From: Holosporales bacterium
Lineage (GTDB): Bacteria > Pseudomonadota > Alphaproteobacteria > BNTO01
Direction of reading: 5' to 3'
DNA length: 41,215 nt
Assembly: GCA_031265645.1 (NCBI GenBank)
Contig: JAISCJ010000144.1
Coordinates: forward strand, 1-41,215
The translations under genes and the position numbers were made by a program. The notes under the pieces were generated by a model, which was not told the DNA's origin, searched no databases, and worked only from the letters and a program-made list of their open reading frames with translations. Below are positions 87-41,215 of the stretch, in pieces. Each line of letters opens with the position of its first letter. Within the stretch, counting starts at the first letter, position 1.

Positions 87-1424
87 ATGGAAAAAATTGT
101 TATTTCAGGTGGCAAACCACTTTGCGGGCGTGTAAAAGTTAGTGGAGCTAAAAATGCTAGCTTGCCATTAATGGCGGCGTCAATTTTATCCGATGAGCCA
201 CTAGTGCTGCATAACATACCAAAGCTCAGCGACATAACGTTAATGGCAGAGCTGTTAACTCATCATGGCGTGCATATTTCATATGATGCAGCAACACAAG
301 CATACACATTTGCCGCGCTCTCAATTATAGACACAACCGCGCCGTACGAAATTGTGAGCAAAATGCGCGCGTCCATTGTTGTCCTCGGTCCAATGTTGGC
401 GCGATGCGGTGAAGCAACGGTGTCGTTGCCTGGTGGTTGCGCGATTGGGACGCGCCCGGTAAACATGCACATTGACGGCTTGAGGGCGCTTGGCGCAACG
501 GTGTCGATTGAAAATGGGTACATTCATGCAAAAGCACCAAAAGAGGGCCTTGTTGGAACCACAATTATTTTGCCATTTGCGACCGTGACTGGCACAGAAA
601 ACATCCTTATGGCAGCCGTGTTGGCTCGAGGGCAAACCATCATCAAAAATGCCGCCAAAGAGCCTGAGGTGTGTGACCTAGCGAAATGCCTGGTTAAAAT
701 GGGAGCACACGTTGAAGGCATTGGAACCGACACGTTAGTAATTAGCGGACGGACGCACTTAAACGGGGCGACGCACCACGTTATTCCTGACAGAATAGAA
801 GCTGCAACATATGCAATTGCCGGAGCAATTACTTATGGCGACATTATTCTGGAAGGCGTTGTTTTCGACGATTTGCTAGCATTTTGGGATTCACTATTGA
901 AAGCTGGAGTAACTGTCGAAAAAGTAGAATCTGAAAATGCCGCAATATCTAGTGTTACTGCTCATGCTGAGCATCGACGCGACGAAGCAACAAACTTTTT
1001 ACAATTTGGTGTAGGAATACGAGTTCCAGCAGAAATAAAAGGCGTTGACATAATGACAGAGCCATATCCTGGCTTTCCAACTGATGCACAAGCACAATTC
1101 ATGGCCTTAATGACACGATGCGACGGAGCTGCAATGATTACAGAAACAGTCTTTGAAAATCGCTTTATGCATGTATCCGAGCTGTGCCGAATGTGCGCAA
1201 ACATTACCATACATAATACGTCTGCACTTGTCCGCGGCGTTGATCAACTGGTTGGTGCAACTGTAATGGCTACGGACCTTAGGGCATCTGTATCATTGGT
1301 GTTGGCGGGATTGGCGGCGAAGGGAGAAACGACGATACAGCGGGTGTACCACATCGATCGTGGATATGAACGAATCGAACAAAAGCTGCAGACCTGTGGA
1401 GCAATGATTGAACGAGTGAGATAG
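87..1424 (+). CDS. murA: UDP-N-acetylglucosamine 1-carboxyvinyltransferase (MurA)
   Basis: 445-aa ORF with an ATG at 87. MurA signatures are VSGAKNASLPLMAA at the N-terminus, the active-site loop LPGGCAIGTRPV (Cys retained), PGFPTDAQAQF, ETVFENRFMHV, and MATDLRASVSLVLAGL...YHIDRGYERIE. Confidence 0.95.
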   Translation: MEKIVISGGKPLCGRVKVSGAKNASLPLMAASILSDEPLVLHNIPKLSDITLMAELLTHHGVHISYDAATQAYTFAALSIIDTTAPYEIVSKMRASIVVLGPMLARCGEATVSLPGGCAIGTRPVNMHIDGLRALGATVSIENGYIHAKAPKEGLVGTTIILPFATVTGTENILMAAVLARGQTIIKNAAKEPEVCDLAKCLVKMGAHVEGIGTDTLVISGRTHLNGATHHVIPDRIEAATYAIAGAITYGDIILEGVVFDDLLAFWDSLLKAGVTVEKVESENAAISSVTAHAEHRRDEATNFLQFGVGIRVPAEIKGVDIMTEPYPGFPTDAQAQFMALMTRCDGAAMITETVFENRFMHVSELCRMCANITIHNTSALVRGVDQLVGATVMATDLRASVSLVLAGLAAKGETTIQRVYHIDRGYERIEQKLQTCGAMIERVR

Positions 1425-1607
1425 CGCAAAATATAGGGCGCCATCCAATCGTCCATAATATTAATTTTCAAATCCCGACTAAAAATGTCATTTTTTCATT
1501 GTAAGCTCATCTATACCCAACCGTTAAAAGAATTACCAACAGGAGTCCTTCCTATTCAGCTAGTTGATGGGTACCCATCGACAAGTGGGAATCTTTTTGC
1601 ACTTGGG

Positions 1608-1613
1608 TATAAT
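1608..1613 (+). promoter_or_regulatory. Candidate -10 box (perfect TATAAT) upstream of tRNA-Leu
   Basis: A perfect TATAAT lies 37 nt upstream of the tRNA 5' end. No convincing -35 hexamer was found at 17-bp spacing. A 14-bp palindrome lies about 30 bp further upstream. Confidence 0.25.
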
Positions 1614-1650
1614 TGACAGAGATAGCATTTTTTGCCAAAGTAACCAGTGT

Positions 1651-1736
1651 GCCCCTGTGGCGGAACTGGTAGACGCGATAGACTCAAAATCTATTACCTT
1701 TCAGGTGTGGGAGTTCAAGTCTCCCCGGGGGTACCA
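1651..1736 (+). tRNA. tRNA-Leu (anticodon CAA), class II with a long variable arm and encoded CCA
   Basis: Cloverleaf folded by hand. The acceptor stem is GCCCCTG/CGGGGGT. The anticodon stem ATAGA/TCTAT carries loop CTCAAAA, giving anticodon CAA. There is a long variable arm. The T arm is GGGAG-TTCAAGT-CTCCC, followed by the discriminator A and CCA. Confidence 0.9.
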
Positions 1737-1898
1737 AAAAATTTTTTCTGGTGATTGATTGCTGTATGGTTTGCCATTGTGGCAAAGAAATCAATAGAGC
1801 ACTCCGCCTCCTGGCAATCTTAGGAATAAACCGAAACACGGTTTCAGTAACCTAGGCTTCGTTGGACAGTATGTTTAGTCGAGCGGGCAGTGTGCACG

Positions 1899-1997
1899 TT
1901 ATCAACCTTCTACTAATGTATGTATCAGCCAGCTTAGGAATTTAACATAATTTAAAAGCGAAAATCGACAGACATGAGTAGAAGCCTAATAGTATCA
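1899..1997 (+). repeat. Interspersed intergenic repeat, family 1, copy A
   Basis: Shares ...ctaatgtatgtatcagccagctt..aacataatttaaaagc..aatcgacagacat.. with the copies at 11985-12193 (reverse), 21976-22074 and 40056-40170. Confidence 0.75.
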
Positions 1998-2077
1998 ACG
2001 CGCAAAAAGCAAGAGGATAATTTTTGAGAGTTTAACTCTTTTTTAATGTTTTTGTGCTATATAAATCCATCCCTAAC

Positions 2078-2100
2078 CCCCACCCACCCTGGGGTTTTTT
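2078..2100 (+). terminator. Intrinsic-terminator-like hairpin with a T6 tail and no annotated upstream gene
   Basis: The stem CCCCA (2078-2082) pairs with TGGGG (2090-2094) around a 7-nt loop, followed by TTTTTT (2095-2100). It lies about 340 nt downstream of tRNA-Leu on the same strand. Confidence 0.4.
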
Positions 2101-2285
2101 AGCGGTGGGCGCGACACATCTATCACAATCATCCCCCACAAAAAGTAAACAATGCAACCTACTCACCACATTTTTCCGCATACTATTTTTTATTATGTTG
2201 CACAAAAACATCATTGATTTCATCTCTTTTCTTCTTGGTCTTTTTTAGAAAATTTTCCTAACGAGCCCTAGTGAATCTTGAACAG

Positions 2286-2378
2286 ATATTAACACCATAT
2301 GTACATATTCCATCTGGAACACACAGGATCAGACCCTTTGCTTGCAGGGTTTTTGTCCTTAAATAATCCTGTGTTTCA
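2286..2378 (+). repeat. Structured intergenic repeat, family 2, copy 1 (nested hairpin with T-run)
   Basis: The outer stem is ACACAGGAT (2321-2329) / ATCCTGTGT (2366-2374). The inner stem is ACCCT (2333-2337) / AGGGT (2346-2350), followed by TTTT. In a hand alignment the core matches the reverse complement of 32735-32793 at 37 of 45 positions. Confidence 0.6.
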
Positions 2379-2540
2379 TATAGGAGCCATAGATTAGCGA
2401 GCGTCAACAAAATATTAATATTCAGATACTTTCCAGAAATTCGAGTTAGATTTGGTTAGATACAGTATAACTAGAATAGTACAATACTATTTGTTACTGT
2501 TATTTACATTGGGGGTTAGAACTGAAGGAAAGTGCTAAAA

Positions 2541-5500
2541 ATGTCAGATATTTTTTGTAACGTCAATAGAAGGAATTTTAGAAAAATCGTACGGAGCCGT
2601 TTTTCAGCGTGGACTTGTATTCCAGAGCGTGCTAGGTGGCAAGTGCCGCATATACAATCATCTGAATTTATTGCGAAACGCCGGCGTCTGCTGACAACGT
2701 CATTAAAAGGCGCTCTGTTTGTTGTGTGTGCAACAGTAATTTCAGATCGCGCGTTTTCCAGTCGTCCTACAGCAATATCGGCTGCTGTAAACACCGTGTC
2801 TGCGGATCTTTTATATTTATCAGATGTGACCGAAGTATTAACAGAACCAACGGCAAAATTAATCATAGCAAAAGCTTGGAACTCACCATTTTATGCAGAT
2901 CAGTTCAATTCTTATAGTGAGGAAAAGCGAAGGTTGCTACTGTTTTTGTTAACGGCCATGCCTTCAGATCCCAAACAAGTTAACACAGATTTGGCTGATT
3001 TCCTGAAGATGTGTGACGATGCGAAAACCCTCAGTCCTAATCTGATAGATGGAAGTTTCGTGCCAACAGATCGGCAAAGTTTTACGCGTGCTGGACTCGC
3101 GTATTTGCTTGGATATACCGAACCTAATGTTTGCGACTTCAGGCAAGCGGCTGAGTTGTTTGGCAAAGCCAGAGATCCTAATGAACTTCGATTATCACGA
3201 CGCGAATCTTTGTTACAGATGTACTCTGCAATAGGTGCGTTGCAGCCTCTTTCTTCGGCGGATATACTCGATTTGCCGGCAAATATGGCGGATTTGCAAA
3301 GTTGGTCCTATCAAGTTGCAAGTAGTCGCGATATGATTCTTTCAGACAATTTTGCCTACTGGTTAAAATTATTACAGCATATGCAGGGAGTCGGAATAAC
3401 AAGAGGTGATGCCTATGATCTGCATTTTGCAGCACGAATACAACGTGCAGCGATGGAGCTTGACTATTTGTTTATTCAGCGACATATGAACCTTGCGCTG
3501 AGACTTGGTTCATTGCCTTTGATTACGCTTTGTAAGGATGTGTCGCAACAAGCGGCAAGCTTTATAAGAAGGCGAGAACATCTGATAGCGCCCGTTCCGA
3601 TAGAAGGACGCGAATTCAAATTTATAGATCGACGACCAATGGAAATATTACTTGGGGATGATCGTATGCGGCGTGAATGGCCAATGCGTGCTGATCTTCA
3701 GGTTGTAGACACTCCCTTTTTGAAGGCGTTCTTATTACAAAAACTGGACACAAGCCGCAGCGTAACATGTACTGCACAAGGGTTAAATGATCTTATCGCA
3801 TTAATCGATTTGCCGTTGTCTCGTTTCCGAGATTATGGCGTGATTTCTTCGGATGTGTGGAGCGGAGCAACAATACCATTAAAAGATGACATACCTGGGC
3901 TAACAGCTGGCGACGCAATCTACCTACAAGATTTGTCTACACAGTTCTTAAGATTTCTTAGTGAACGAATCGTAACACTGGAATTTGCTGATACAGAATA
4001 CGCGTTAGATGCTATGAAAAATTCACTACAGGCGCTGCTACGAAGAAATTTCGAAGCATTAGCTGTTCGGTATCCTTCTGAGGCAGAGCTTGCTAATTAT
4101 CGTCAAAGTGTACGTTTTTCGGAATTCTGTAAAGGCTTCGTTAGGTTTGATGTCCGCGAAGGTGATGACACTTACGTAAAAAAACTAAGCCTAGAAATAC
4201 CCGAAGGGAAAGGATACAGCAAGTGGGGTGATACGCCAGTTCAACGGCTTGAAGAACTAGCACTATGCATTGAATCAGTACGTTCTTCTGATAAGAGATT
4301 GGAATACACTTACGGAACATTAGGACATACATTATTTTTGGCCGCCAGAACAGTATTGCTTGAATTTTTTACGCCACAATCTATGGCCGTTTCTGACATT
4401 GCAGAGATACAAAATATGTCGCCACTCGCGCGCAGCACATTAGCTATGTTTTATTACTGGTTTAATTTAGATCGTCTGGGTTTTTTTATGAAAACCTCCT
4501 TCTGTGATTCGCCGTATCCACTTCACAAAGAATTAACACTAAGTGTGCTTCCAAACTTTGATTCAGTAACGCTCCCCCCATATTTCGAGGTACTAAGCGA
4601 GTGCATGATTGGTGCTTTGCCACGCTTGTACCTTAGAGATACTGCGTGGAGAGAATTTTTTGAACAGTATATGGAAGCAGCCCCTTTTGCAATATTTGCC
4701 CGTTGGAAAGCGGATATTTTAGGTCATGCCATTGACGGGTATAATTATAACCCCAATTATAAATGTAGTATCGATTCGGAAATACATAAACGTATCGACA
4801 GAGCATTTAATGCCGTTTTTACCGGAGAAGTTTTCAACGATGAAATAACGTGTACTTTTTGGGACAGAAGTGTAGCGACATTTGCAAGCGGGAGTCAAAT
4901 CCCTAGTTTAAACAAAGAGGGCAGCCCTCCAAGGTTTTTAGAAATACAAGGTCGAGCCAAGTATGAGTGCGATTCTCCTTATTTACGAGGCGTAACATTA
5001 TGGGACGCTAAATATTCTCCGAATTTACCAATCGTAGATCCTGACGAGTTCCCGAGCTTCGATATTGATCTTACTGCAGTCAATAGCCCGTCGTTGGCCA
5101 GTTGGGGAATGCTGATATCAATGGCAAGGACGGATCCAATTTATCGAACTTTTCTTCCGCGGGATTTTATGTTACGTGCCGGAGCACGTCAAAATGCAAA
5201 TCTGATGACTTCTTTGTTCGCGGAAAGGGAAAGTACATTCTGCCTACCTAGCGATGATTACACGGGTCGTGTCGTCGATGTGTTGCCGGAATCGTTCTTC
5301 GAAATCGCGCCACGTCTTAGACAATTCGGGACATTATACGGTGAAAATCCATTCTCAATGGACGCCGAGACATGTCAGCCTGGCTGGGAGAAGAGCATTC
5401 AATCATCCGTGCTTTTCAATCAGAACTGGTGTAGGCTGCTAGGCTCGTGGAATTGCAAACCGGACAGTTATTCCACTACGTTTGGTGCGCTGTGTCATCG

Positions 5501-6089
5501 TACAGCTGATGCGACAAAATGGAGCGACGTTCCTGTGTTTGTGGAAAAAATTCCGTACGATTCTCCATTTATGCTGGACAATACAATTGTTTCAATAGCA
5601 GATAAGCCGCTCTATGAAGTTGCACTTACTTGCGCTAGGCAGTACTACAGGAGACAAATAAACCCATCGGGGACTGCACTATTATTGGAACATGGACGGT
5701 TTTTAGAACTAAGTGGCTTAACTATGCGCAGCTCGCAAGCGCTAATTACACCGCAGATAGCAAAAAGCAGACAAATTTCTGAACTGACGTTTGCTAAACA
5801 AATGTTGCACAGCAAGCTTGTGCGAGATTTGCATAATGATATTGAGATTCTGGCAGGAGGGTACGTAAACTTTTTAGTAGGATCGCCTGATGCTGACGAG
5901 ATAAGGCAATCGTTTTCGTTCGATGTGTTTAACTTAGTGCTAAACAAAGTCGCCTCTAGTCTGAAAACAGTCAATCTATGGCAAACATATAATTTTTTGA
6001 AAGAAACCGTGCTCGGCGAAGTTGCTAACGCCGTTGGGAACTCGTTGTTACGTAGTGATTTGAAACTTCCATATGTTGACCTAATGTAG
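2541..6089 (+). CDS. Large hypothetical protein (about 1150-1185 aa), possibly exported; no recognisable family
   Basis: Uninterrupted 3.56-kb ORF. The start is uncertain. Candidates are GTG 2532, ATG 2541 (AAGGAA 10 nt upstream), and GTG 2643 (preceded by AGGTGG). The last would give an N-terminus of KRRRLLTTSLKGALFVVCATVISDRAFS, resembling a Tat/Sec signal. I recognise no conserved catalytic motifs. Confidence 0.7.
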   Translation: MSDIFCNVNRRNFRKIVRSRFSAWTCIPERARWQVPHIQSSEFIAKRRRLLTTSLKGALFVVCATVISDRAFSSRPTAISAAVNTVSADLLYLSDVTEVLTEPTAKLIIAKAWNSPFYADQFNSYSEEKRRLLLFLLTAMPSDPKQVNTDLADFLKMCDDAKTLSPNLIDGSFVPTDRQSFTRAGLAYLLGYTEPNVCDFRQAAELFGKARDPNELRLSRRESLLQMYSAIGALQPLSSADILDLPANMADLQSWSYQVASSRDMILSDNFAYWLKLLQHMQGVGITRGDAYDLHFAARIQRAAMELDYLFIQRHMNLALRLGSLPLITLCKDVSQQAASFIRRREHLIAPVPIEGREFKFIDRRPMEILLGDDRMRREWPMRADLQVVDTPFLKAFLLQKLDTSRSVTCTAQGLNDLIALIDLPLSRFRDYGVISSDVWSGATIPLKDDIPGLTAGDAIYLQDLSTQFLRFLSERIVTLEFADTEYALDAMKNSLQALLRRNFEALAVRYPSEAELANYRQSVRFSEFCKGFVRFDVREGDDTYVKKLSLEIPEGKGYSKWGDTPVQRLEELALCIESVRSSDKRLEYTYGTLGHTLFLAARTVLLEFFTPQSMAVSDIAEIQNMSPLARSTLAMFYYWFNLDRLGFFMKTSFCDSPYPLHKELTLSVLPNFDSVTLPPYFEVLSECMIGALPRLYLRDTAWREFFEQYMEAAPFAIFARWKADILGHAIDGYNYNPNYKCSIDSEIHKRIDRAFNAVFTGEVFNDEITCTFWDRSVATFASGSQIPSLNKEGSPPRFLEIQGRAKYECDSPYLRGVTLWDAKYSPNLPIVDPDEFPSFDIDLTAVNSPSLASWGMLISMARTDPIYRTFLPRDFMLRAGARQNANLMTSLFAERESTFCLPSDDYTGRVVDVLPESFFEIAPRLRQFGTLYGENPFSMDAETCQPGWEKSIQSSVLFNQNWCRLLGSWNCKPDSYSTTFGALCHRTADATKWSDVPVFVEKIPYDSPFMLDNTIVSIADKPLYEVALTCARQYYRRQINPSGTALLLEHGRFLELSGLTMRSSQALITPQIAKSRQISELTFAKQMLHSKLVRDLHNDIEILAGGYVNFLVGSPDADEIRQSFSFDVFNLVLNKVASSLKTVNLWQTYNFLKETVLGEVANAVGNSLLRSDLKLPYVDLM

Positions 6090-26266: not shown

Positions 26267-27250
26267 ATGCAAATTGGCAATGTTAAGTTACCAATTCCGG
26301 TTATATTGGCTCCCATGGCCGGAGTTACAGATTATCCATTTAGGAAAATCGTGAATCATTTCGGTGCTGGACTAGTCTATTCAGAAATGGTGGCTAGCCG
26401 CGCAATAATGGAGGCGCTGAAAAACACTAAAGTGCGAAAGCGCTTGCATTTCTTTGATGCGTCGATTGAACCGTATCTGGTATCCATGCAGATTGTTGGA
26501 AACGATCCAGAAATAATGGCGGATGCAGCCCGCTTTAGTGAGCAACTTGGCGCAACATGCGTTGATATAAACATGGGGTGCCCCGTCAAAAAAGTCGTAA
26601 ACATAGATTGCGGTGCAGCGTTAATGAAAGACGAAGCGTTAGCGGCAAAAATATTACGTGCGGTTGTTGCAGCCGTGCGAATACCAGTTACGGTGAAAAT
26701 GCGATTAGGCTGGGACTTTCAGCACATAAATGTCATTGAGCTTGCAAAAATGGCAGAAAATGAAGGAGTATGCGCCGTTGCAGTACACGGGCGCACGCGA
26801 TCGCAATTTTACGAAGGAACTGCGAATTGGCAAATTATCAGTGAAGTAAAGCAGTCTCTAAAAATTCCCGTGATTGGTAACGGTGACGTAAAGGATATTT
26901 TTGGCGCCAGTGAATTGTTAAAGAGTTGCAATGCTGTAATGATTGGGCGAGGCGCGTGTGGACGTCCATGGCTGCTTCGTCAGGTTGCAGCACATTTGGA
27001 CAATGCGCAGATACCCAAGCAATGTAACATACAGGTGCTAGATACAATCCATTCACATTTGGCTCTGATCTTAGAAACCTATGGCGAGGACAAAGGGACA
27101 AGGCTTGCGCGCAAACACTTAGATTGGTACAGCAAGGGTTACCCTGGAGCAGCAGCATTTCGATCTACTGTAAACTCCGAAGTGACTGCAAGTGGAATGT
27201 ACGCACTCGTGGATGAGTTTTTCTCTGGATTGGTGGCACATGAAAGCTAG
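26267..27250 (+). CDS. dusB: tRNA-dihydrouridine synthase (DusB-like)
   Basis: From ATG 26267 the product reads MQIGNVKLPIPVILAPMAGVTDYPFRKI. It also has DINMGCPVKKV and the TIM-barrel flavoenzyme pattern VAVHGRTR..IPVIGNGD. Confidence 0.88.
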   Translation: MQIGNVKLPIPVILAPMAGVTDYPFRKIVNHFGAGLVYSEMVASRAIMEALKNTKVRKRLHFFDASIEPYLVSMQIVGNDPEIMADAARFSEQLGATCVDINMGCPVKKVVNIDCGAALMKDEALAAKILRAVVAAVRIPVTVKMRLGWDFQHINVIELAKMAENEGVCAVAVHGRTRSQFYEGTANWQIISEVKQSLKIPVIGNGDVKDIFGASELLKSCNAVMIGRGACGRPWLLRQVAAHLDNAQIPKQCNIQVLDTIHSHLALILETYGEDKGTRLARKHLDWYSKGYPGAAAFRSTVNSEVTASGMYALVDEFFSGLVAHES

Positions 27251-28502
27251 CAACCAACTGTTTGACCGCGAAGAGCGAGGACAGACTCGACAGATTCCGC
27301 TGGCAGAAGCGTTGCGTCCCAAAGATTTTAGTGAGTTAGTTGGCAATATAGATTTTTCCAGCGGCAATTTGGGTAGTCTGCAATCGTTAATTCTCTGGGG
27401 GCCTCCTGGTTGTGGAAAAACAACGCTTGCGAGAATTATTGCATCCAAAAGCGAATTAACAAGCGTTTCGCTGTCTGCCGTCACTTCTGGAACAGCGGAT
27501 TTTCGTGATGTGTTTGATATTGCCAACCGCGGGACAAAGATTGTGCTGATGATTGACGAAATTCATCATTTAAACAAATCGCAGCAAGATATTTTTCTGC
27601 CACATATTGAAAATGGTAACATTATTCTGATCGGAACAACAACAGAAAATCCATCGTTTGAGCTAAGGCAAGCACTGCTATCCAGGTGCAAAGTCATTGT
27701 GTTCTCACGTTTATCAACCGATGACCTCCTTCAAATTATTTTGCGAGTAGAGAATCATATTGGCAAGCCCCTGATATTGACAGAAGAAGCGAAGCATTGT
27801 TTGTGTGACCTTGCAGACGGTGATGCGCGTTATTTGTTGAACAGAATTGAAGAAATTTTACACGTAAATTCGGACCATTTACTGACGGCTGAAGACCTAG
27901 GTGCGCTGTTTCAAAAAAAGCTCAAAAGGTACGACAAGAACGCAGATGAGCATTACAACCTTATTAGCGCTTTTCATAAATCCATTCGCGGCTCCGATGT
28001 AAATGCGGCGCTGTACTGGTTTGCTCGAATGCTGCGTGGTGGCGAGGATCCGTTATACATTGCAAGGCGGCTTGTGCGTGCTGCGGCGGAGGATGTAGGA
28101 ACGGCAGATCCGCAAGCAATACAGGTTGCAATTGCTGCTGTAGAGGCGTTTCGATTCTTGGGTTCACCTGAAGGAGAACTGGTCATTGCCGAAGCAGTTG
28201 CCTATGTTGCTACTGCCCCAAAGTCGAATGCTGTGTATCGTGCGTACAATACAGCAGTCGCGTTCGTGGACAAGACAGATGCAATCCCTCCTCCGATGCA
28301 CGCAATTAATGCACCGACTACGCTAGCAAAAGAGCTAGGATACGGACAGGGGTATTTGTATGACCACGACTCTCTTAACGCATTCTCGGGACAGAACTAT
28401 TTTCCAGGTGAACGGCAAGATTTTTATAAACCAAATGAGCGTGGATTTGAGCGAGAAATAAAAAAGAGAATGGATTGGTGGGAGAAAAATCGACGGGGTT
28501 AA
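27240..28502 (+). CDS. rarA: Replication-associated recombination protein A (RarA/MgsA AAA+ ATPase)
   Basis: LAEALRPKDFSELVGN, Walker A LWGPPGCGKTTLARIIA, Walker B VLMIDEIHHLNKSQQD, ENPSFEL..ALLSRC, C-terminal HYNLISAFHKSIRGSD, and PPMHAINAPT. The ATG at 27240 overlaps the dusB end by 11 nt. Confidence 0.92.
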   Translation: MKASNQLFDREERGQTRQIPLAEALRPKDFSELVGNIDFSSGNLGSLQSLILWGPPGCGKTTLARIIASKSELTSVSLSAVTSGTADFRDVFDIANRGTKIVLMIDEIHHLNKSQQDIFLPHIENGNIILIGTTTENPSFELRQALLSRCKVIVFSRLSTDDLLQIILRVENHIGKPLILTEEAKHCLCDLADGDARYLLNRIEEILHVNSDHLLTAEDLGALFQKKLKRYDKNADEHYNLISAFHKSIRGSDVNAALYWFARMLRGGEDPLYIARRLVRAAAEDVGTADPQAIQVAIAAVEAFRFLGSPEGELVIAEAVAYVATAPKSNAVYRAYNTAVAFVDKTDAIPPPMHAINAPTTLAKELGYGQGYLYDHDSLNAFSGQNYFPGERQDFYKPNERGFEREIKKRMDWWEKNRRG

Positions 28503-28678: not shown

Positions 28679-31600
28679 CTAATTTCGTAAATGTCTCAGC
28701 ATGAGAGGATAGAGTTGCTTTATCAAGATAGAAAACCAACTATTTGCTTTCCCTTTCTGGGCTACAAAATTTTTGACAAAACCATGATCCGCGCCATAGA
28801 TTGCGGTAAAAATTTTCAAGGCATTCTCAAAGCAGGTCCCTATCTTGGTGGGGTCCTTTATGATTTCAAACGCATTCGCTTTATTCAATTCGTCATATTT
28901 TTCTTTCTCAAAAAAATTTCGACAGAATTCGTTCATATTCTGAAAGAACGTTGCAAAATGCTTTATTGATGCGGCCTGATTACCCTGGCGAAATTTAAAA
29001 ACAGCCGCATGATACTCAATTTTGTTACGTCTAATGACGTAATCGTTGCTCTTTCCGTAGTTTCCAAAATTCAAAAACTGCAAGCAATCTTCGTACCCTT
29101 CAACTGATTTATTCAAATAACCCCTCGCATAAATCCTGTATTCTAAGGCGAACATGGCATAGCGATTCATTCCCATGCGTCGAAAGTTATCGATCACATA
29201 TGACAGCTTTTTTTCAGCTATGCGAAATTTCCCTAACCCTATCAAATTTCCGCTTTCTTCTCTTAAAACCCACAATTTGGGAACTAAATAATCTCCATCC
29301 TTTTCATAGTGTTTCAATATGTAGGCAGCTTCATTGATTTCTTCTAACCCCTGCCTATGAAGACCTGCAACCCCGTAAAAATTGGATAAACCTCTTCTAA
29401 TAAAAAACGCCATTGATGGAAACTTATCGGGAAGCTTTTTTTCCCGCTTACTAAAAGGAGGGTCTGCGTTGTGTAGCTTCAAAATTTTACTGGCATAATC
29501 CAGCCCTATTTTGCATTCAGGTTTTGTAACGTAGTAATGCTCAAGGTAGGCAACAAATAAGATATGGTATGCTTCCGTTAAAATCTGATGAGCCCAACGC
29601 TCTGGACAACTCTCTACAATATCTATAGATCTTTGAGCCAACCTTAAACATTCGTCAAAATTCCCGTCATTATTGTAAAGTGTTGCTAATTTAACAGCCC
29701 CCATAGACAATAATGCCTCATTGTCGGTTGATGATTCTGCTAATTCTAGACCTTTTTTCAGGTGCTGCTTGGCTTGTACTGTATCTCCCAAGAGAACAGA
29801 GTCATATCCTAAATTAAGAAAAAGAGCAGACAAATCGCGCGCACTAATATATTTTTCCAAGTTTTCTATCGAAAGTACGCTCTTGTAGCACTCTACCGCT
29901 TCCGAAATTTTATTCCGATTGGAATGCAGTAAGTGTCCTAATGCCAGCAAAATTCGAGTACTACATTGCTGAATATTGCATGCAATGTTTTTAATCTTGT
30001 GCTCTATACTTTTTAAGTGCAACAACAGGTGAGCAGAACTGCCCACGTTTTCAAGCTCACCTTTGTATAATGGCCAACAAATTTGTTCGAATGGAGTCAA
30101 CATTTTGACGATATGGTCTATCTTTTCTCTTTTTTCTGTATCACTTAATAATGAAAGAATGCACGAAAGGCCTATTTTTTGAGCACTTCTGTGCATGGAT
30201 AAACAAGCGCCATTATCAAAGATGAGGGAATATTGTTTTAATTGATAAATAAAGTCGTCTACAAGTGTTTCGCTTTGCACTTGGCTGTTTAGTAGACGAA
30301 CGCACTTATGCAATAACTCTTTTGAAATATTTTGCGAATCTACTAAACAGACGAGCAGCAATAATTCTTTAAATTCCAATCTTTTTTCGAGAATTTTTTG
30401 AAAACTCGAAAAAATAATTCTATATCGTGTTTTGTTATAAGCTAACTCTTCGCCCAACAGATCACTTTGCATACTTTCAAATGCTTGGTCCCCGCGCACG
30501 ATCATATTAGCATACGCATCAAATGATTCTTCTGTGTTTTTTATGTAATGAGCTGCAGCAGAAATATCTAACGGAAATGAAGGAATTTTTACTAGAAAAT
30601 CTTGTATTTCGCGCTCTTTTTCGACAGACCAATTTGATTCTTCATCGCTTCGAAAAATTTGTTTAAAAAGCGTATTTTTTTCTTTTTCATCCAATTTTTC
30701 GATATGCAAAACCATTGAGGGAGTGAGATGTCCAACATTTTGAATGTTACTGTTCTGAGTCGTCAAAATAACAATACCATGGCCCCATTTTTTCTCATCG
30801 TATGGAAAATTATCACGAATGCCTTGAAATGACTTTACATTATCAAAAATAAGCCCCCATCTTTTGACAGTGCTTAACCTTTTTTGAATAAAAACTATCC
30901 GTTGCTTACTCTGTTCGAGCTGATCTGTAATTGCTAGGATAAATTGGAGTTCCTGTCTTAACGCATGCGTATTTGCTAAAAGATAGGCTAAATTTGTTAA
31001 AGAACTGGATAAAGATATATCTGTCTCTGCATTGATTTCAAATATGAACGTGTTTCTTAAATTTTTAGCATATTGGCGAGCAATCGTTGTTTTACCTGCG
31101 CCACCAGGGCCAACAATTACGAGAACTGGCACACCCGTTTGTTTCTTTAGAAGCTTACCCATTTCACGTATTAACCGGCTTCTCTCTAATAAGTGCTCCT
31201 TTTTGATAAACGGAATGTCTGGCGATACTAACGGGGCAGTTCTTTGCGATAGAAATAGAACGATCGAACCAAAAATCAGGATGAAGACCCCTACTGATAA
31301 AAAATTTATTTTGTATGGTGCTATTTTTCCACGGCTGCGTCTGAATGACATAGGGAAATTTTTATCTTGATTGCTTACGATAAGCAAACCCTTGTCTTGT
31401 TTAGAAACTTTATAGTGATAGAAATGCTGTATTACTTCCAGCACTGCTGCAGCATAACGCTCATGATAATAGATACACCGCGCTTGGACTACGACAGGAG
31501 TGGCATTGGGAACAAGAATTAAGTAGGATCTCCAATTTTTGCAGGGAATACTACTTTCTTCACCCAAAAAGTCAGATGTAGGAATAAAAACAGTGTTTAC

Positions 31601-32044
31601 GGTGTTCCCTATTCGCTGCTTTGTTTCGATCGGAATTCCAGCTAATTGTAAGTGTCTTGCCAATCGGCAATTTTTTTTGTTTTTACACTCTCGCTGACAC
31701 AACACGTAACACGGTTCAGTTGCCTCCGACTTATTTTTTGATGCAACGTTTTTTAGCACTTTCTTCAAAGAATTCTCTGCTAGGATATTTTCGTAACGCT
31801 CCTTAAAGTATTGTCTGAGGTCGAATTTATCTACTATGTCTAATATTTGTTCTTTTGAATTGCATACCATTTTGATTGCGATATTGTGAACGTGTGCTTC
31901 CATCGTTTTTGGTGAAATTTCAATCAGGTTCGCAAAAAATTTCGCGGAATGACCGCTTGCTAATCCGGAAATGACGTCAAGCTCTCTTGGCGTCAACTGA
32001 AACGAGCCAATCTCAATATCGGGAAAGCTCCCACAAAGTTCCAT
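28679..32044 (-). CDS. STAND-class NTPase with an N-terminal LuxR/GerE HTH, a predicted transmembrane helix, an NB-ARC-like P-loop domain and C-terminal TPR-like repeats
   Basis: Starts at ATG 32044 (TTG at 32050 is possible). Domains in order:
- HTH: LTPRELDVISGLASGHSAKFFANLIEISPKTMEAHVHNIAIKM.
- Basic stretch plus hydrophobic helix: FRRSRGKIAPYK-INFLSVGVFILIFGSIVLFLS.
- Walker A: VLVIVGPGGAGKTTIARQYA.
- Walker B-like: WGLIFDNV.
- GIVILTTQN and LDEKEKNTLFKQIF.
- About 600 aa of helical TPR-like repeats. Confidence 0.8.
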   Translation of the reverse strand: MELCGSFPDIEIGSFQLTPRELDVISGLASGHSAKFFANLIEISPKTMEAHVHNIAIKMVCNSKEQILDIVDKFDLRQYFKERYENILAENSLKKVLKNVASKNKSEATEPCYVLCQRECKNKKNCRLARHLQLAGIPIETKQRIGNTVNTVFIPTSDFLGEESSIPCKNWRSYLILVPNATPVVVQARCIYYHERYAAAVLEVIQHFYHYKVSKQDKGLLIVSNQDKNFPMSFRRSRGKIAPYKINFLSVGVFILIFGSIVLFLSQRTAPLVSPDIPFIKKEHLLERSRLIREMGKLLKKQTGVPVLVIVGPGGAGKTTIARQYAKNLRNTFIFEINAETDISLSSSLTNLAYLLANTHALRQELQFILAITDQLEQSKQRIVFIQKRLSTVKRWGLIFDNVKSFQGIRDNFPYDEKKWGHGIVILTTQNSNIQNVGHLTPSMVLHIEKLDEKEKNTLFKQIFRSDEESNWSVEKEREIQDFLVKIPSFPLDISAAAHYIKNTEESFDAYANMIVRGDQAFESMQSDLLGEELAYNKTRYRIIFSSFQKILEKRLEFKELLLLVCLVDSQNISKELLHKCVRLLNSQVQSETLVDDFIYQLKQYSLIFDNGACLSMHRSAQKIGLSCILSLLSDTEKREKIDHIVKMLTPFEQICWPLYKGELENVGSSAHLLLHLKSIEHKIKNIACNIQQCSTRILLALGHLLHSNRNKISEAVECYKSVLSIENLEKYISARDLSALFLNLGYDSVLLGDTVQAKQHLKKGLELAESSTDNEALLSMGAVKLATLYNNDGNFDECLRLAQRSIDIVESCPERWAHQILTEAYHILFVAYLEHYYVTKPECKIGLDYASKILKLHNADPPFSKREKKLPDKFPSMAFFIRRGLSNFYGVAGLHRQGLEEINEAAYILKHYEKDGDYLVPKLWVLREESGNLIGLGKFRIAEKKLSYVIDNFRRMGMNRYAMFALEYRIYARGYLNKSVEGYEDCLQFLNFGNYGKSNDYVIRRNKIEYHAAVFKFRQGNQAASIKHFATFFQNMNEFCRNFFEKEKYDELNKANAFEIIKDPTKIGTCFENALKIFTAIYGADHGFVKNFVAQKGKANSWFSILIKQLYPLMLRHLRN

Positions 32045-32117
32045 TGACAAACTGCTCGCATATTAACGCGGACTGCCGCGATTCTAACCCAATTAGTCCA
32101 AAAATTCACGTATTACT

Positions 32118-32144
32118 AAAAATAAGGGTGTTCCCCTTATTTTT
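32118..32144. promoter_or_regulatory. Perfect 11-bp inverted repeat in the divergent intergenic region (candidate operator or bidirectional hairpin)
   Basis: AAAAATAAGGG (32118-32128), spacer tgttc, then CCCTTATTTTT (32134-32144). It lies between the STAND gene start (32044) and the small ORF start (32233). Confidence 0.4.
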
Positions 32145-32194
32145 CAAAAATTGGTGATTTACCAGGATTACACCATATCATGACTTGCGCAATA

Positions 32195-32206
32195 ACCCAA
32201 TTGGGT
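32195..32206. promoter_or_regulatory. Perfect 12-bp palindrome ACCCAATTGGGT just upstream of the small ORF
   Basis: ACCCAATTGGGT lies 27 nt upstream of ATG 32233. A half-site copy, TAACCCAATT, also occurs at about 32085-32094. Confidence 0.35.
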
Positions 32207-32232
32207 CTGGGCTTTTTTTGGGAGAGTTTCTC

Positions 32233-32634
32233 ATGAATGGAAAATTTTGTAAGGGAATCTTGATAGCGAAAGTGATCACTGATAGCTTGGGAATTGCTTG
32301 TCCATGTTATGCAACAAGCAGTGCAACAAATTTTAAATCTGTTAAACTACTATGCGATGATGTGCAGTGTTTGCCGTTAGTATTAACTGATATCGCGTTG
32401 GGACATGTTGAGCTGCAAACTAAGTGTGCAGAACTGGATACAAGGGGGCAATTCATTGAGGAAGGATGTTGTAAATTGCAACATCAATTTGAAGAACTGC
32501 AACGTGATTACGGGAACTCGACGCAACAGAATAAAGTACTAATTCAATTAGCAAACGAAATTGATGACAATTTTGGTGGTTTTGATGCTATTGAGGAAGC
32601 GTGTAATCATTTGCTGCATGCAATCAATTTCTAG
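32233..32634 (+). CDS. Small Cys-rich hypothetical protein (133 aa)
   Basis: The ATG at 32233 is preceded by GGGAGAG. The product has 9 Cys, including a CC pair. The C-terminal half looks coiled-coil-like (KLQHQFEELQRDYG). I recognise no family. It is divergent from the STAND gene. Confidence 0.5.
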   Translation: MNGKFCKGILIAKVITDSLGIACPCYATSSATNFKSVKLLCDDVQCLPLVLTDIALGHVELQTKCAELDTRGQFIEEGCCKLQHQFEELQRDYGNSTQQNKVLIQLANEIDDNFGGFDAIEEACNHLLHAINF

Positions 32635-38318: not shown

Positions 38319-39485
38319 ATGGCGGGGTGTAATATGTTTTTCGGACACAGAATATTAGAACTTGGAGCGAGTGTCGCACCTTTTTTGATTGTATTGTTAA
38401 TCATTGTGTTTGTACACGAAATGGGACACTTCCTGATCGCAAGATACAACGGTATACAAGTTTCCACCTTTTCTGTTGGATATGGGCCTGAGCTTTGCGG
38501 ATTTACGGATAAAAAAGGCACACGTTGGAGAATTAGCGCAATTCCAGTTGGTGGATACGTCATGATGCTGGGAGACGCAGATGCGACGAGTGTAAAGTCA
38601 AACATCAAGGATGTTGATGAAAGCAATAAAGACAAGACATTGCAATCCAAATCCCCGTTACAACGAATCATGGTCTCGTTCGGTGGGCCATTGTTTAACT
38701 TTTTATTCACGATGATTATAATCGCAGGAATTAGCGCCTGGAAAGGGATTCCTGATGTTAGAACTTGCGTGCAAGCTGTAAACGTCGGGTCTGTCGCCGA
38801 AAAGTGTGGCATTCAACCAGGAGACGTCATCACAGGGATTGGAGGCACAGCCGTGTCAAAAGTGTCTGAAATGCTGAAATGCTTGAAAACGTTGGCAGGA
38901 ACGGATACAAAGATTCATTTCTTGCGAGGAGCTGAGGAGCATGTTGTGCCGGCATGTCTTTACAACGTCAATGAAAATGGGAAGAAAATCGCAGTGCATC
39001 TTCTAGGAATCGCACTTTCAGGAGAAATGGTATTTGAGCGTGCATCTATTGCGAGATCGATGTCATATGCTGTCGAATATTGTTATGTTTCCGTAAAGTC
39101 AATTACAGCTGGACTAGCGAGAGCCATAATGGGGCAAAAGGACGGAGCGAAGCTAGGGAGTGTTTTTTCGATTGGAAAGGATTTAAACAAATCTTTACAG
39201 CAAGGGATAATCCCATCCTTGTCCTTCATGGCGATGATATCGTTGAGCTTGGGCTTCTTTAACATGCTTCCAATTCCTGTACTTGATGGCGGAAGCATAT
39301 TCTTAAATTCGATAGAACTGATTATTCGTCGTCCACTGTCAGCAGCTGTGATTAATGTCGTTTACACTATTGGTTTAGTGATTGTCGCATCTCTAATGCT
39401 TCTCTCACTTTGGAACGACTTTGAGAGGTTTGGATTTATCAAAAAGATATTAGATTTTGCAAAAAATCTTTGTGGAAAGCTATGA
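38319..39485 (+). CDS. rseP: RIP metalloprotease RseP (M50 site-2 protease)
   Basis: HEMGHFLIARYNG (HExxH) in the first TM region, a central PDZ-like segment (GIQPGDVITGIGG), and C-terminal FFNMLPIPVLDGG. The start is ATG 38319 or ATG 38334. Confidence 0.9.
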   Translation: MAGCNMFFGHRILELGASVAPFLIVLLIIVFVHEMGHFLIARYNGIQVSTFSVGYGPELCGFTDKKGTRWRISAIPVGGYVMMLGDADATSVKSNIKDVDESNKDKTLQSKSPLQRIMVSFGGPLFNFLFTMIIIAGISAWKGIPDVRTCVQAVNVGSVAEKCGIQPGDVITGIGGTAVSKVSEMLKCLKTLAGTDTKIHFLRGAEEHVVPACLYNVNENGKKIAVHLLGIALSGEMVFERASIARSMSYAVEYCYVSVKSITAGLARAIMGQKDGAKLGSVFSIGKDLNKSLQQGIIPSLSFMAMISLSLGFFNMLPIPVLDGGSIFLNSIELIIRRPLSAAVINVVYTIGLVIVASLMLLSLWNDFERFGFIKKILDFAKNLCGKL

Positions 39486-40216: not shown

Positions 40217-41101
40217 CTAACCCTTCAACTTATCAACATCCTCAACAGATAACCCTGTACACTGACTCACAATATCCACCTCAAGCCCCCTTGCTAGCAT
40301 TGCAATCGCAGTTTCCCGAGCTTTTTCCGCCTTACCCTTAGCCTCCCCTTCCGCCTTACCCTTAGCCTCCCCTTCAACCAAACCTTCAGCCTTAGCATTT
40401 GCCTCACGATTTATCCGATCGTTCTCCGCTCTAATATGGTTTTCATACTCTTGTCTCATCCTTTCATCCGCGCTCATCACCTTCAGCTCTTCCAGCGCCT
40501 CATTCACTTCAGGAACCTTCTCCAAAAACTCAAACGGAATCAATTCCGGCTTTTTCAAAAAATACATCCACACCAAAAACACGTCATTAACTGACGCCTC
40601 CTTTAGATCAATTTTCGGCAACTCTATAATAAAAGTACGCATCTTCTCACTAGCAACTTCAACATCATCAAACGGATTCGCCTTAAACATATACACTGCT
40701 TCATGCGTATGATATTTTCTGTTTGTTTCAGGATAATTTGTCAGCCAAATCGAAATGATGTCTGGACACGAATCATAAGTATCCCCTTCGCTAAGCTCAC
40801 TTTTAATAATACGCGACTTATGATTAAACGCTCGATTTACAAGATTTCCATCACGTTTACACTGAATTTCTATATCCACAATACTTCCATCATCAGTTCT
40901 CGCCTTAACATCAAGTGTCGTAGACTTTCCATTCTTCCATTGCTTTTTATGTTGCGGATTAAGCAGCGTAATACTTTTAATCGTTGGCTTCCCTTTCAAT
41001 ATGGAATTCAGCAAGCATATAAGCACCCTCTTGTGCTTTTCTTCACCAAACAGATTCGAAAAAACAAAATCCGAACTAGGTTTTAATAGTCCACATTCCA
41101 T
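40217..41101 (-). CDS. Rpn-family recombination-promoting nuclease / putative transposase (PD-(D/E)XK, YhgA/Transposase_31-like)
   Basis: From ATG 41101: MECGLLKPSSDFVFSNLFGEEKHKRVLICLLNSIL...TLDVKARTDDGSIVDIEIQ (the D...D/E-x-K core context). The C-terminus is a helical Lys/Glu/Ala repeat, EGEAKGKAEGEAKGKAEKARE. The longest ORF extends to 41170. Confidence 0.75.
   Translation of the reverse strand: MECGLLKPSSDFVFSNLFGEEKHKRVLICLLNSILKGKPTIKSITLLNPQHKKQWKNGKSTTLDVKARTDDGSIVDIEIQCKRDGNLVNRAFNHKSRIIKSELSEGDTYDSCPDIISIWLTNYPETNRKYHTHEAVYMFKANPFDDVEVASEKMRTFIIELPKIDLKEASVNDVFLVWMYFLKKPELIPFEFLEKVPEVNEALEELKVMSADERMRQEYENHIRAENDRINREANAKAEGLVEGEAKGKAEGEAKGKAEKARETAIAMLARGLEVDIVSQCTGLSVEDVDKLKG
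40327..40374. repeat. Perfect 24-bp tandem duplication inside the Rpn-family gene
   Basis: CCGCCTTACCCTTAGCCTCCCCTT occurs at 40327-40350 and again at 40351-40374. It encodes the duplicated KGKAEGEA unit. Confidence 0.85.
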
Positions 41102-41215
41102 ATTCGAGTCACCATTCACACCACCATCAACAACCATTATACAACGACTTTGCTGATAAAACGCAAGCATTTTGCATGTCGATCAGAACGCCATGCGTCT
41201 AATTTCGCATGGAAA

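Follow-up and report, generated by a model that had tools for sequence, protein, structure and literature searches.

A GerE helix-turn-helix, one predicted transmembrane helix and an NB-ARC–TPR module share a polypeptide in a large protein family of Holosporales-like bacteria

We analyzed a 41,215-nucleotide stretch of DNA from a Holosporales bacterium (GenBank assembly GCA_031265645.1, contig JAISCJ010000144.1, positions 1 to 41,215 of the forward strand), called the window here, whose numbering is used throughout. The gene examined is a long open reading frame (ORF) on the minus strand at 28679..32050, which encodes 1123 amino acids (aa) when read from a TTG at 32050; the public gene call begins two codons later, at an ATG at 32044, and gives 1121 aa. 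The protein consists of a helix-turn-helix (HTH) of the GerE/LuxR type, a linker domain, a single predicted transmembrane (TM) helix, an NB-ARC nucleoside triphosphatase (NTPase) of the STAND class, and a TPR-like alpha-solenoid. A first-pass annotation, made from the letters and their translation, had picked out the basic patch, the hydrophobic helix, and the Walker A, Walker B, and ILTTQN motifs, all of which lie in the translation where it had placed them. It had also pointed to palindromes at 32051-32232, and we found an inverted repeat and a palindrome in that region. The parts of the locus are as follows.

28679..32050, minus strand: whole ORF, with its stop codon at 28679-28681
31838..31999, minus strand: GerE/LuxR-type HTH, aa 18-71 (Pfam and Foldseek)
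31406..31816, minus strand: long helix and small alpha/beta domain, aa ~79-215, ~140 aa (AlphaFold2 secondary structure, moderate predicted local distance difference test, pLDDT)
31310..31345, minus strand: basic patch FRRSRGKIAPYK on the N-terminal side of the hydrophobic helix (translation)
31247..31303, minus strand: single predicted TM helix FLSVGVFILIFGSIVLFLS, 19 aa (Kyte-Doolittle 19-mer mean 2.59)
30095..31195, minus strand: NB-ARC STAND NTPase module, aa ~286-652 (Pfam, NCBIfam, motifs, and Foldseek)
31088-31111, minus strand: Walker A, GPGGAGKT (translation)
30836-30853, minus strand: Walker B, LIFDNV (translation)
30752-30769, minus strand: ILTTQN (translation)
30185-30199, minus strand: MHD-like motif, SMHRS (translation)
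28682..30082, minus strand: TPR-like alpha-solenoid, aa ~657-1123, ~470 aa (Pfam and model)
32118..32144, no strand: perfect inverted repeat AAAAATAAGGG-N5-CCCTTATTTTT, a candidate operator centered ~87 bp upstream of the ATG
32195..32206, no strand: 12-bp palindrome ACCCAATTGGGT in the same intergenic region, overlapping the start of a 149-aa ORF at 32185-32634

Pfam bore out the proposed GerE HTH, NB-ARC NTPase, and C-terminal TPR, each above its gathering threshold: GerE at aa 18-71 scored 36.7 bits (threshold 23.5), NB-ARC at aa 297-475 scored 35.1 bits (threshold 23.5), and TPR_12 scored 36.5 bits (threshold 30.1), with TPR_NPHP3 and TPR_MalT matching as well. By Foldseek, the HTH has the canonical four-helix fold and resembles the DNA-binding domains of LiaR, VraR, NarL, and GerE, with a root-mean-square deviation of ~1 Å over ~60 aa and a template-modeling score of 0.8-0.86 relative to the target. 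It lies at the N terminus (aa 18-71 of 1123) and not at the C terminus, as is usual for LuxR/GerE regulators. The NB-ARC region matched the STAND protein PH0952, CED-4, and plant NLRs in Foldseek, and aa 286-646 are homologous to the NCBIfam FxSxx_TPR model. The Pfam score, the Walker A and Walker B motifs, a GLPL-like motif, and the winged-helix His are all features expected of NB-ARC proteins; the protein belongs to both the NB-ARC clade and the GerE superfamily.

An AlphaFold2 model of the whole protein, built on 77 family sequences, had a pLDDT of 84 and a predicted template-modeling score (pTM) of 0.71. Modeled in order are the four-helix HTH, a helix at residues 77-103, an alpha/beta domain at 112-213, a disordered stretch, a lone helix at 249-266, a short linker, the NB-ARC, and the solenoid. 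The modeled NB-ARC contains nucleotide-binding, helical, and winged-helix domains and ends at about residue 650. Residues 476-652 are its helical and winged-helix part, which reduces the ~600 aa first assigned to TPR-like repeats to ~470 aa. This solenoid is all-helical, with pLDDT mostly above 90; the family profile matches the TPR domains of kinesin light chain (KLC), LGN, and AfsR, and the solenoid is presumed to be the sensor. The ~170 aa that had been described as unknown sequence between the HTH and the hydrophobic helix proved to be structured, as the helix and alpha/beta domain just mentioned, and in keeping with that description they had no match in Pfam; a separate AlphaFold2 model searched with Foldseek matched the HTH only. 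The linker domain, predicted to be cytoplasmic, is kept in most family members and is missing in the five closest homologues. Whether the hydrophobic segment is a buried core helix instead of a TM helix had been raised at the outset: in the model, aa 249-266 form a lone helix flanked on either side by linkers with pLDDT below 50 and do not look like part of a domain core.

A homologue search among 5.8 billion proteins returned 77 homologues with 25-39% identity. The top homologue is only 33% identical to the window protein, and E-values of homologues with the same architecture reach 1e-130. All but a few of the 77 share the order GerE, NB-ARC, TPR. Searching a profile of the N-terminal module (HTH, linker, and TM helix) against 1.84 billion representatives, with a cut-off of E ≤1e-30, yielded 974 clusters at 50% identity. 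The predicted TM helix between HTH and NTPase, originally noted in one protein, is a family-wide feature: it is present in 72 of the 77 homologues, 83 of 88 locus-encoded copies, and 84 of 89 full-length proteins found with the profile, so that 93-94% of members in the three sets retain a single TM helix. In the 72 homologues, the hydrophobic segment measures 19-28 aa (median 20.5), has a Kyte-Doolittle mean of 1.6-3.2, and is separated from Walker A by 38-69 aa (median 53); its position is conserved and its sequence is variable. A second hydrophobic segment is nearly absent (1 of 72 and 2 of 89 members). As a check on chance, a 19-mer with a Kyte-Doolittle mean of at least 1.6 occurred in just 1 of the 72 C-terminal parts (~800 aa). 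Having one hydrophobic segment and almost never another, the proteins are predicted to cross the membrane once.

The nucleotide-binding motifs are also conserved. Invariant in the 77 members are G314, G315, G317, and K318 of Walker A; P491, L492, and D493 of the FPLD motif; and the His at the MHD position, H618, within (I/M)HR. Walker B, with the pattern W...FDNV, has D401 and N402 each in 76 of 77. Sensor 1 reads TTR in 60 members and TTQ in the window protein, a Gln variant common to 11. Judged by this alignment, the NB-ARC is under strong constraint. As far as these comparisons reach, the order HTH, one TM helix, NB-ARC, and TPR is the conserved hallmark of a large lineage-restricted family and no peculiarity of a single gene.

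We then asked which bacteria carry the family. The window GyrA is 95% and 90% identical to metagenome proteins, the 90% match being named 'Holosporales bacterium'; its identity to the GyrA of Candidatus Odyssella and Paracaedibacter is 60-62%. Scanning a single genome for each species gave 196 relatives, and the best 78 of these were used for the analysis of loci. Most of the 78 are labeled Holosporales, Holosporaceae, Paracaedibacteraceae, Paracaedibacter, Caedibacter, Odyssella, Rickettsiales/Rickettsiaceae, or 'Alphaproteobacteria'; four are labeled otherwise (Lactobacillales, Parachlamydiaceae, Hyphomicrobiales, and 'Rickettsia typhi'), and some of these four bins, on short contigs, may be mis-binned. 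Copy number varies: the window has one family copy, 14 loci have two or three ORFs with a Walker A motif, most of them family copies in tandem, and the metagenome-assembled genome of Alphaproteobacteria bacterium 41-28 has at least 13 copies. The window also encodes a TLC ATP/ADP transporter (PF03219, 563 bits) at 10051-11808 on the minus strand. Transporters of this kind mark obligate intracellular energy parasites, and the presence of the tlc gene therefore means that the organism imports host ATP. Members with a named source belong to Holosporales and Rickettsiales-like endosymbionts, and tandem paralogues occur in many genomes. The family is apparently confined to intracellular, host-ATP-importing, Holosporales-like bacteria.

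Compared with characterized systems, the architecture has relatives on two sides. Streptomyces AfsR (PDB 8K60 and 8JKE) likewise has an N-terminal DNA-binding domain, an NB-ARC switch, and a C-terminal TPR, with a conserved His as the switch at the MHD position and TPR domains that are related to those of the window family (E = 6.6e-17). It differs in being soluble and actinobacterial, with no TM helix, in having an OmpR-type winged helix and a BTAD where the window family has GerE, and in its histidine-aspartate switch in place of (I/M)HR. In AfsR, according to a preprint, an NLR-type NB-ARC-TPR switch gates promoter binding by the fused DNA-binding domain (bioRxiv 10.64898/2026.09.02.748808). 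The predicted layout resembles that of ToxR, CadC, and TcpP: the DNA-binding domain is N-terminal and cytoplasmic, one TM helix follows, and the C-terminal part is a large sensor outside the cytoplasm. Those regulators are activated by clustering of the sensor; they differ from the window family in their OmpR-type Trans_reg_C domain, the window family having GerE and a nucleotide-dependent STAND sensor. Pfam found neither Trans_reg_C nor BTAD in the window protein, which places it outside both the AfsR/SARP family and the ToxR/CadC family proper.

MalT and the LAL regulators combine a STAND NTPase, a TPR-like sensor, and a LuxR-type HTH, and in them, ligand and ATP drive oligomerization and thereby transcription activation. 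Their HTH is C-terminal, however, their NTPase belongs to the MalT clade, and they are soluble; the window protein scored 25.8 bits against the MalT model NF003420 (cut-off 537) and thus falls outside MalT/LAL. The top structural match to the NB-ARC and TPR together was PH0952, an archaeal STAND-TPR protein (PDB 6MFV; Foldseek E = 2.8e-13, template-modeling score 0.61 relative to the target, 15% sequence identity), which as far as we know has neither an HTH nor a TM helix. Among NCBIfam models, the best match was the FxSxx-COOH system TPR protein (NF040586), at 80.7 bits against a cut-off of 300, which is below membership; the match is confined to the NB-ARC region at aa 286-646, and the HTH and TM helix have no counterpart there.

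With a DNA-binding domain and at least one TM segment, here a predicted one, in a single polypeptide, the window protein has what defines a transmembrane regulator. In a published census of 50,302 such regulators, 56% are single-pass, GerE, with 4943 proteins, ranks third among the DNA-binding domains, and NB-ARC and NACHT occur in just 8 and 134 proteins, respectively (PMC10269533). That single-pass regulators with a cytoplasmic DNA-binding domain are common provides a precedent for the topology predicted here. The first-pass annotation knew of no described family with this arrangement. As regards characterized families this still holds, and a full-text literature search found no paper describing an HTH-TM-NB-ARC-TPR family; a qualification is that Rickettsia bellii RBE_0418 (GerE, 1 TM, 983 aa), an apparent member by architecture alone, is listed in the census and receives no comment there (PMC10269533). 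The architecture is real, conserved, and undescribed, and it joins two known kinds of signaling protein.

The flanks of the helix bear on its orientation. In 66 of 72 members, a Lys or Arg is found at position -1 or -2 relative to the helix. On the N-terminal side, the adjoining 15 residues have on average 3.9 Lys/Arg and 1.0 Asp/Glu, compared with 2.4 Lys/Arg and 1.5 Asp/Glu in the 15 residues on the C-terminal side, and the N flank is the richer in Lys/Arg in 58 members and the poorer in 10. By the positive-inside rule, this bias would place the NTPase outside the cytoplasm; the topological paradox that had been read from the single protein was reproduced across the family. Moreover, the N-terminal part of the proteins, a folded domain measuring 90-430 aa, lacks a signal peptide; the helix is a textbook signal anchor; and the HTH must be cytoplasmic to bind DNA. 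For these reasons, insertion is predicted to be N-in/C-out, as in ToxR and CadC, with the NB-ARC and TPR on the periplasmic face.

Upstream sequences suggest what the HTH may bind. A motif search in the 300 bp upstream of 73 family genes returned the palindrome ATCTACGTAGAT, and many family genes carry TCTACGTAGA, often doubled, ~100 bp upstream. Exact matches to the 8-mer TACGTAGA number 33 in the 925 kb of related loci. The stretches from -200 to -40 of family genes account for 1.3% of this sequence and contain 19 of the 33 (binomial p = 1.5e-27). When up to two mismatches are allowed, the motif precedes 24 of 77 genes, mostly at ~85-140 bp upstream and in a few cases out to about -240. The upstream copies come from at least 12 different genomes (loci L009, L013, L014, L016, L022, L025, L028, L029, L034, L056, L067, L070, L073, and others); paired copies are frequently 11 bp apart, and their flanks are unrelated. 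The recognition helix PRTVETHIRNIM is common to the motif-carrying genes, and the window protein has PKTMEAHVHNIAIKM there. Given the conserved operator-like palindrome upstream of family genes, the HTH very probably acts on bacterial DNA. Tandem palindromes one helical turn apart would suit an oligomerizing LuxR-type regulator, and their presence upstream of the family genes themselves points to autoregulation. We infer that the HTH of the family is cytoplasmic and autoregulating and binds palindromic operators that include one in its own promoter. For the window gene, the candidate operator is the inverted repeat at 32118-32144: its placement matches that of the palindromes at about -100 in other family genes, and lying between divergent genes, it is likelier to be an operator than a terminator. 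We found no inverted repeat common to the window gene and its closest relatives, and those relatives are also without TCTACGTAGA.

The observations, namely an architecture conserved across the family, its lineage, the tlc gene, and the motif upstream, led us to a reading to which we give a probability of roughly 55%: the product is a transcription regulator that spans the membrane once, with a topology like that of ToxR and CadC, and whose signaling module consists of a STAND (NB-ARC) switch and a TPR sensor. The mechanism that we propose would be the STAND cycle familiar from MalT, Apaf-1, and AfsR. A ligand would bind the TPR, and this ligand together with exchange of ADP for ATP would drive oligomerization of the NB-ARC. 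The TM helices would thereby be brought together so that HTH domains meet across the membrane, and the gathered HTH domains would bind the tandem operator sites with raised, cooperative affinity. The nucleotide for the switch may be host ATP: on its way to the TLC translocase, host ATP crosses the periplasm, which offers a way out of the paradox of a periplasmic ATP switch. Tandem paralogues with divergent TPR arrays might each sense a different host-derived cue. We infer the topology, the nucleotide source, the oligomerization, and the autoregulation in this scheme.

An extension of the transmembrane-regulator reading is more tentative. The NB-ARC and TPR may be truly periplasmic, made possible by the host ATP that surrounds these energy-parasitic endosymbionts, and would then form the first STAND/NLR-type switch known outside the cytoplasm; we would put this at somewhat below an even chance. 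In that case, the family would be an outward-facing bacterial 'NLR' that reads cues from the host cytosol, possibly host ATP/ADP as a signal of being inside a host cell, and relays them directly to transcription through a single helix.

Several observations weigh against the transmembrane-regulator reading. The orientation is predicted from hydrophobicity, flanking charge, and the large folded N-terminal domain, and the C flank still holds Lys and Arg (the mean of 2.4 given above). The periplasm normally lacks its own supply of ATP, and to our knowledge, every characterized STAND NTPase is cytoplasmic. The window protein itself has Gln in place of the sensor-1 Arg, and TCTACGTAGA is missing upstream of its gene, for which the operator is a guess. 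Some full-length members have no TM helix (the L029 copy at 129-3353, plus strand, and P0227, P0292, and P0315; maximum Kyte-Doolittle 19-mer mean 0.55-1.05). These are probably soluble variants, and their existence indicates that the module can apparently also work in the cytoplasm. Conversely, HTH-less paralogues in L047 (9415-11736) and L052 (9460-11724, both on the plus strand) start at the TM helix and continue with NB-ARC and TPR; they are embedded in tandem arrays of full-length copies and could be co-oligomerizing partners of those copies.

The main rival, which we consider unlikely, draws on several of the same observations. It holds that the protein is tethered to the membrane and wholly cytoplasmic, the helix being a monotopic or re-entrant anchor or an oligomerization element, and that the switch works in the manner of AfsR with bacterial ATP. 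The cytoplasmic location of the known STAND NTPases, the strictly conserved nucleotide-binding motifs, and the rare TM-less variants all fit it, as does the number of cysteines in the C-terminal parts (35 even and 37 odd), which has no even-number bias and is uninformative on localization. The segment is, however, short, uniformly hydrophobic, and non-amphipathic, and at a median of 20.5 aa, it is too short for a hairpin. There is also no second hydrophobic segment to return the chain, and the Lys/Arg pair before the helix is a classic signal-anchor feature. Another rival, which we regard as improbable, has the membrane form inactive until intramembrane proteolysis, for example by RseP, frees an HTH fragment into the cytoplasm. 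The window encodes this M50/PDZ site-2 protease at 38319-39485, the helix contains Gly and Ser residues, and the transmembrane regulators TcpP, ToxR, and CadC are subject to such regulated proteolysis. The link to RseP, floated by the first-pass annotation, did not hold up: RseP is a universal housekeeping gene product, its gene adjoins gyrA, and the gyrA-rseP adjacency that explains its position is kept in a relative (L083) with no STAND gene nearby. The family genes have no conserved neighbors, and a freed monomeric GerE domain would lose the oligomerization supplied by the NB-ARC.

Two further explanations seem to us very unlikely. One makes the protein a STAND sensor for anti-phage defense or conflict, of the Avs or bacterial NLR type, in which the HTH-TM part is the effector. 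Its layout of effector, STAND, and TPR would suit such a role, as would the lineage-specific expansion, tandem paralogues, and fast divergence of the family, the best homologue being just 33% identical although the database holds a relative with a 95% identical GyrA. Against this, PADLOC models matched only the P-loop, with a best E of 0.0013, so that the defense reading entertained earlier lost ground; the N terminus is an HTH, which is no killing effector, the neighbors are housekeeping genes and form no defense island, and the conserved upstream operator points to control of transcription. By these features, the protein falls outside Avs. The other explanation, to which we attach just as little weight, is a secreted eukaryote-like effector that is parked in the inner membrane before delivery to the host, whose proteins would be the targets of its NB-ARC and KLC-like TPR. 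These domains do resemble eukaryotic ones, the hosts of the family are intracellular bacteria, and a neighboring NB-ARC family in three related loci has signal-peptide-like N termini. A bacterial GerE HTH and a conserved bacterial upstream palindrome are nevertheless unsuited to a host-directed effector, and the bacterial inner membrane retains helices of such hydrophobicity.

Switches of the STAND/NLR type are well known, as are single-pass transmembrane regulators; a fusion of the two, with the helix between effector and switch, is undescribed. The topological puzzle is genuine, extends to the family as a whole, and is open to experimental test. If the predicted topology is true, NLR-type ATP switches could no longer be assumed to be strictly cytoplasmic, and intracellular bacteria would be able to exploit periplasmic host ATP for signaling. 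If it is false, these regulators would still form a large, expanded set that is unstudied. The members that carry a name come from obligate endosymbionts, in which transcription factors are usually few, and this would make the family a prime candidate for host sensing in Holosporales. The family offers experimental handles in its conserved operator motif and its invariant His switch; in AfsR, mutating the His switch gives a constitutively active protein.

The genes around the ORF are housekeeping ones, encoding Dus, MgsA/RarA, RlpA, an aromatic amino-acid permease, and GyrA. As listed, Dus (26228-27250, plus strand) and MgsA/RarA (27192-28502, plus strand) overlap by 59 nt, which is probably an artifact of choosing the longest start for MgsA. 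The divergent 149-aa ORF (32185-32634, plus strand), once considered as a possible conserved neighbor, had no match in Pfam and none by tblastn in the 78 related loci; it is an orphan gene or no gene. No neighbor is conserved across the family loci and no operon partner was found, the closest homologues adjoining unrelated housekeeping genes. In contigs L082 and L083, whose GyrA is 95% and 82% identical to that of the window, respectively, the order of genes around gyrA is wholly different from that in the window, which suggests heavy rearrangement between close relatives. Neither contig has a copy of the STAND gene near gyrA, and no close orthologue was found.

In three related loci, members of a second NB-ARC family adjoin the HTH-TM-NB-ARC genes (L025, 3903-7433; L034, 5578-9990; L072, 9348-14471; plus strand). 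These proteins have a signal-peptide-like N terminus (e.g., WIILMVSGLLFIQTNPLNA followed by ME), a kinase-like HGD region, NB-ARC, DUF7779, and Sel1 repeats, and from their N termini, they may be exported in the same bacteria. Elsewhere in the window, two long ORFs had no Pfam match at 1e-3: one of 1185 aa at 2532-6089 on the plus strand, with a weakly hydrophobic stretch near its N terminus (Kyte-Doolittle 19-mer mean 1.75 at aa 53), and one of 761 aa at 22668-24953 on the minus strand, with a hydrophobic segment near aa 105 (mean 2.11). At the contig end, a transposase-like gene of the PD-(D/E)XK type (PDDEXK_2; 40217-41170, minus strand) coincides with a sharp change in GC skew (-0.40), and the edge of the related contig L082 carries a similar gene.

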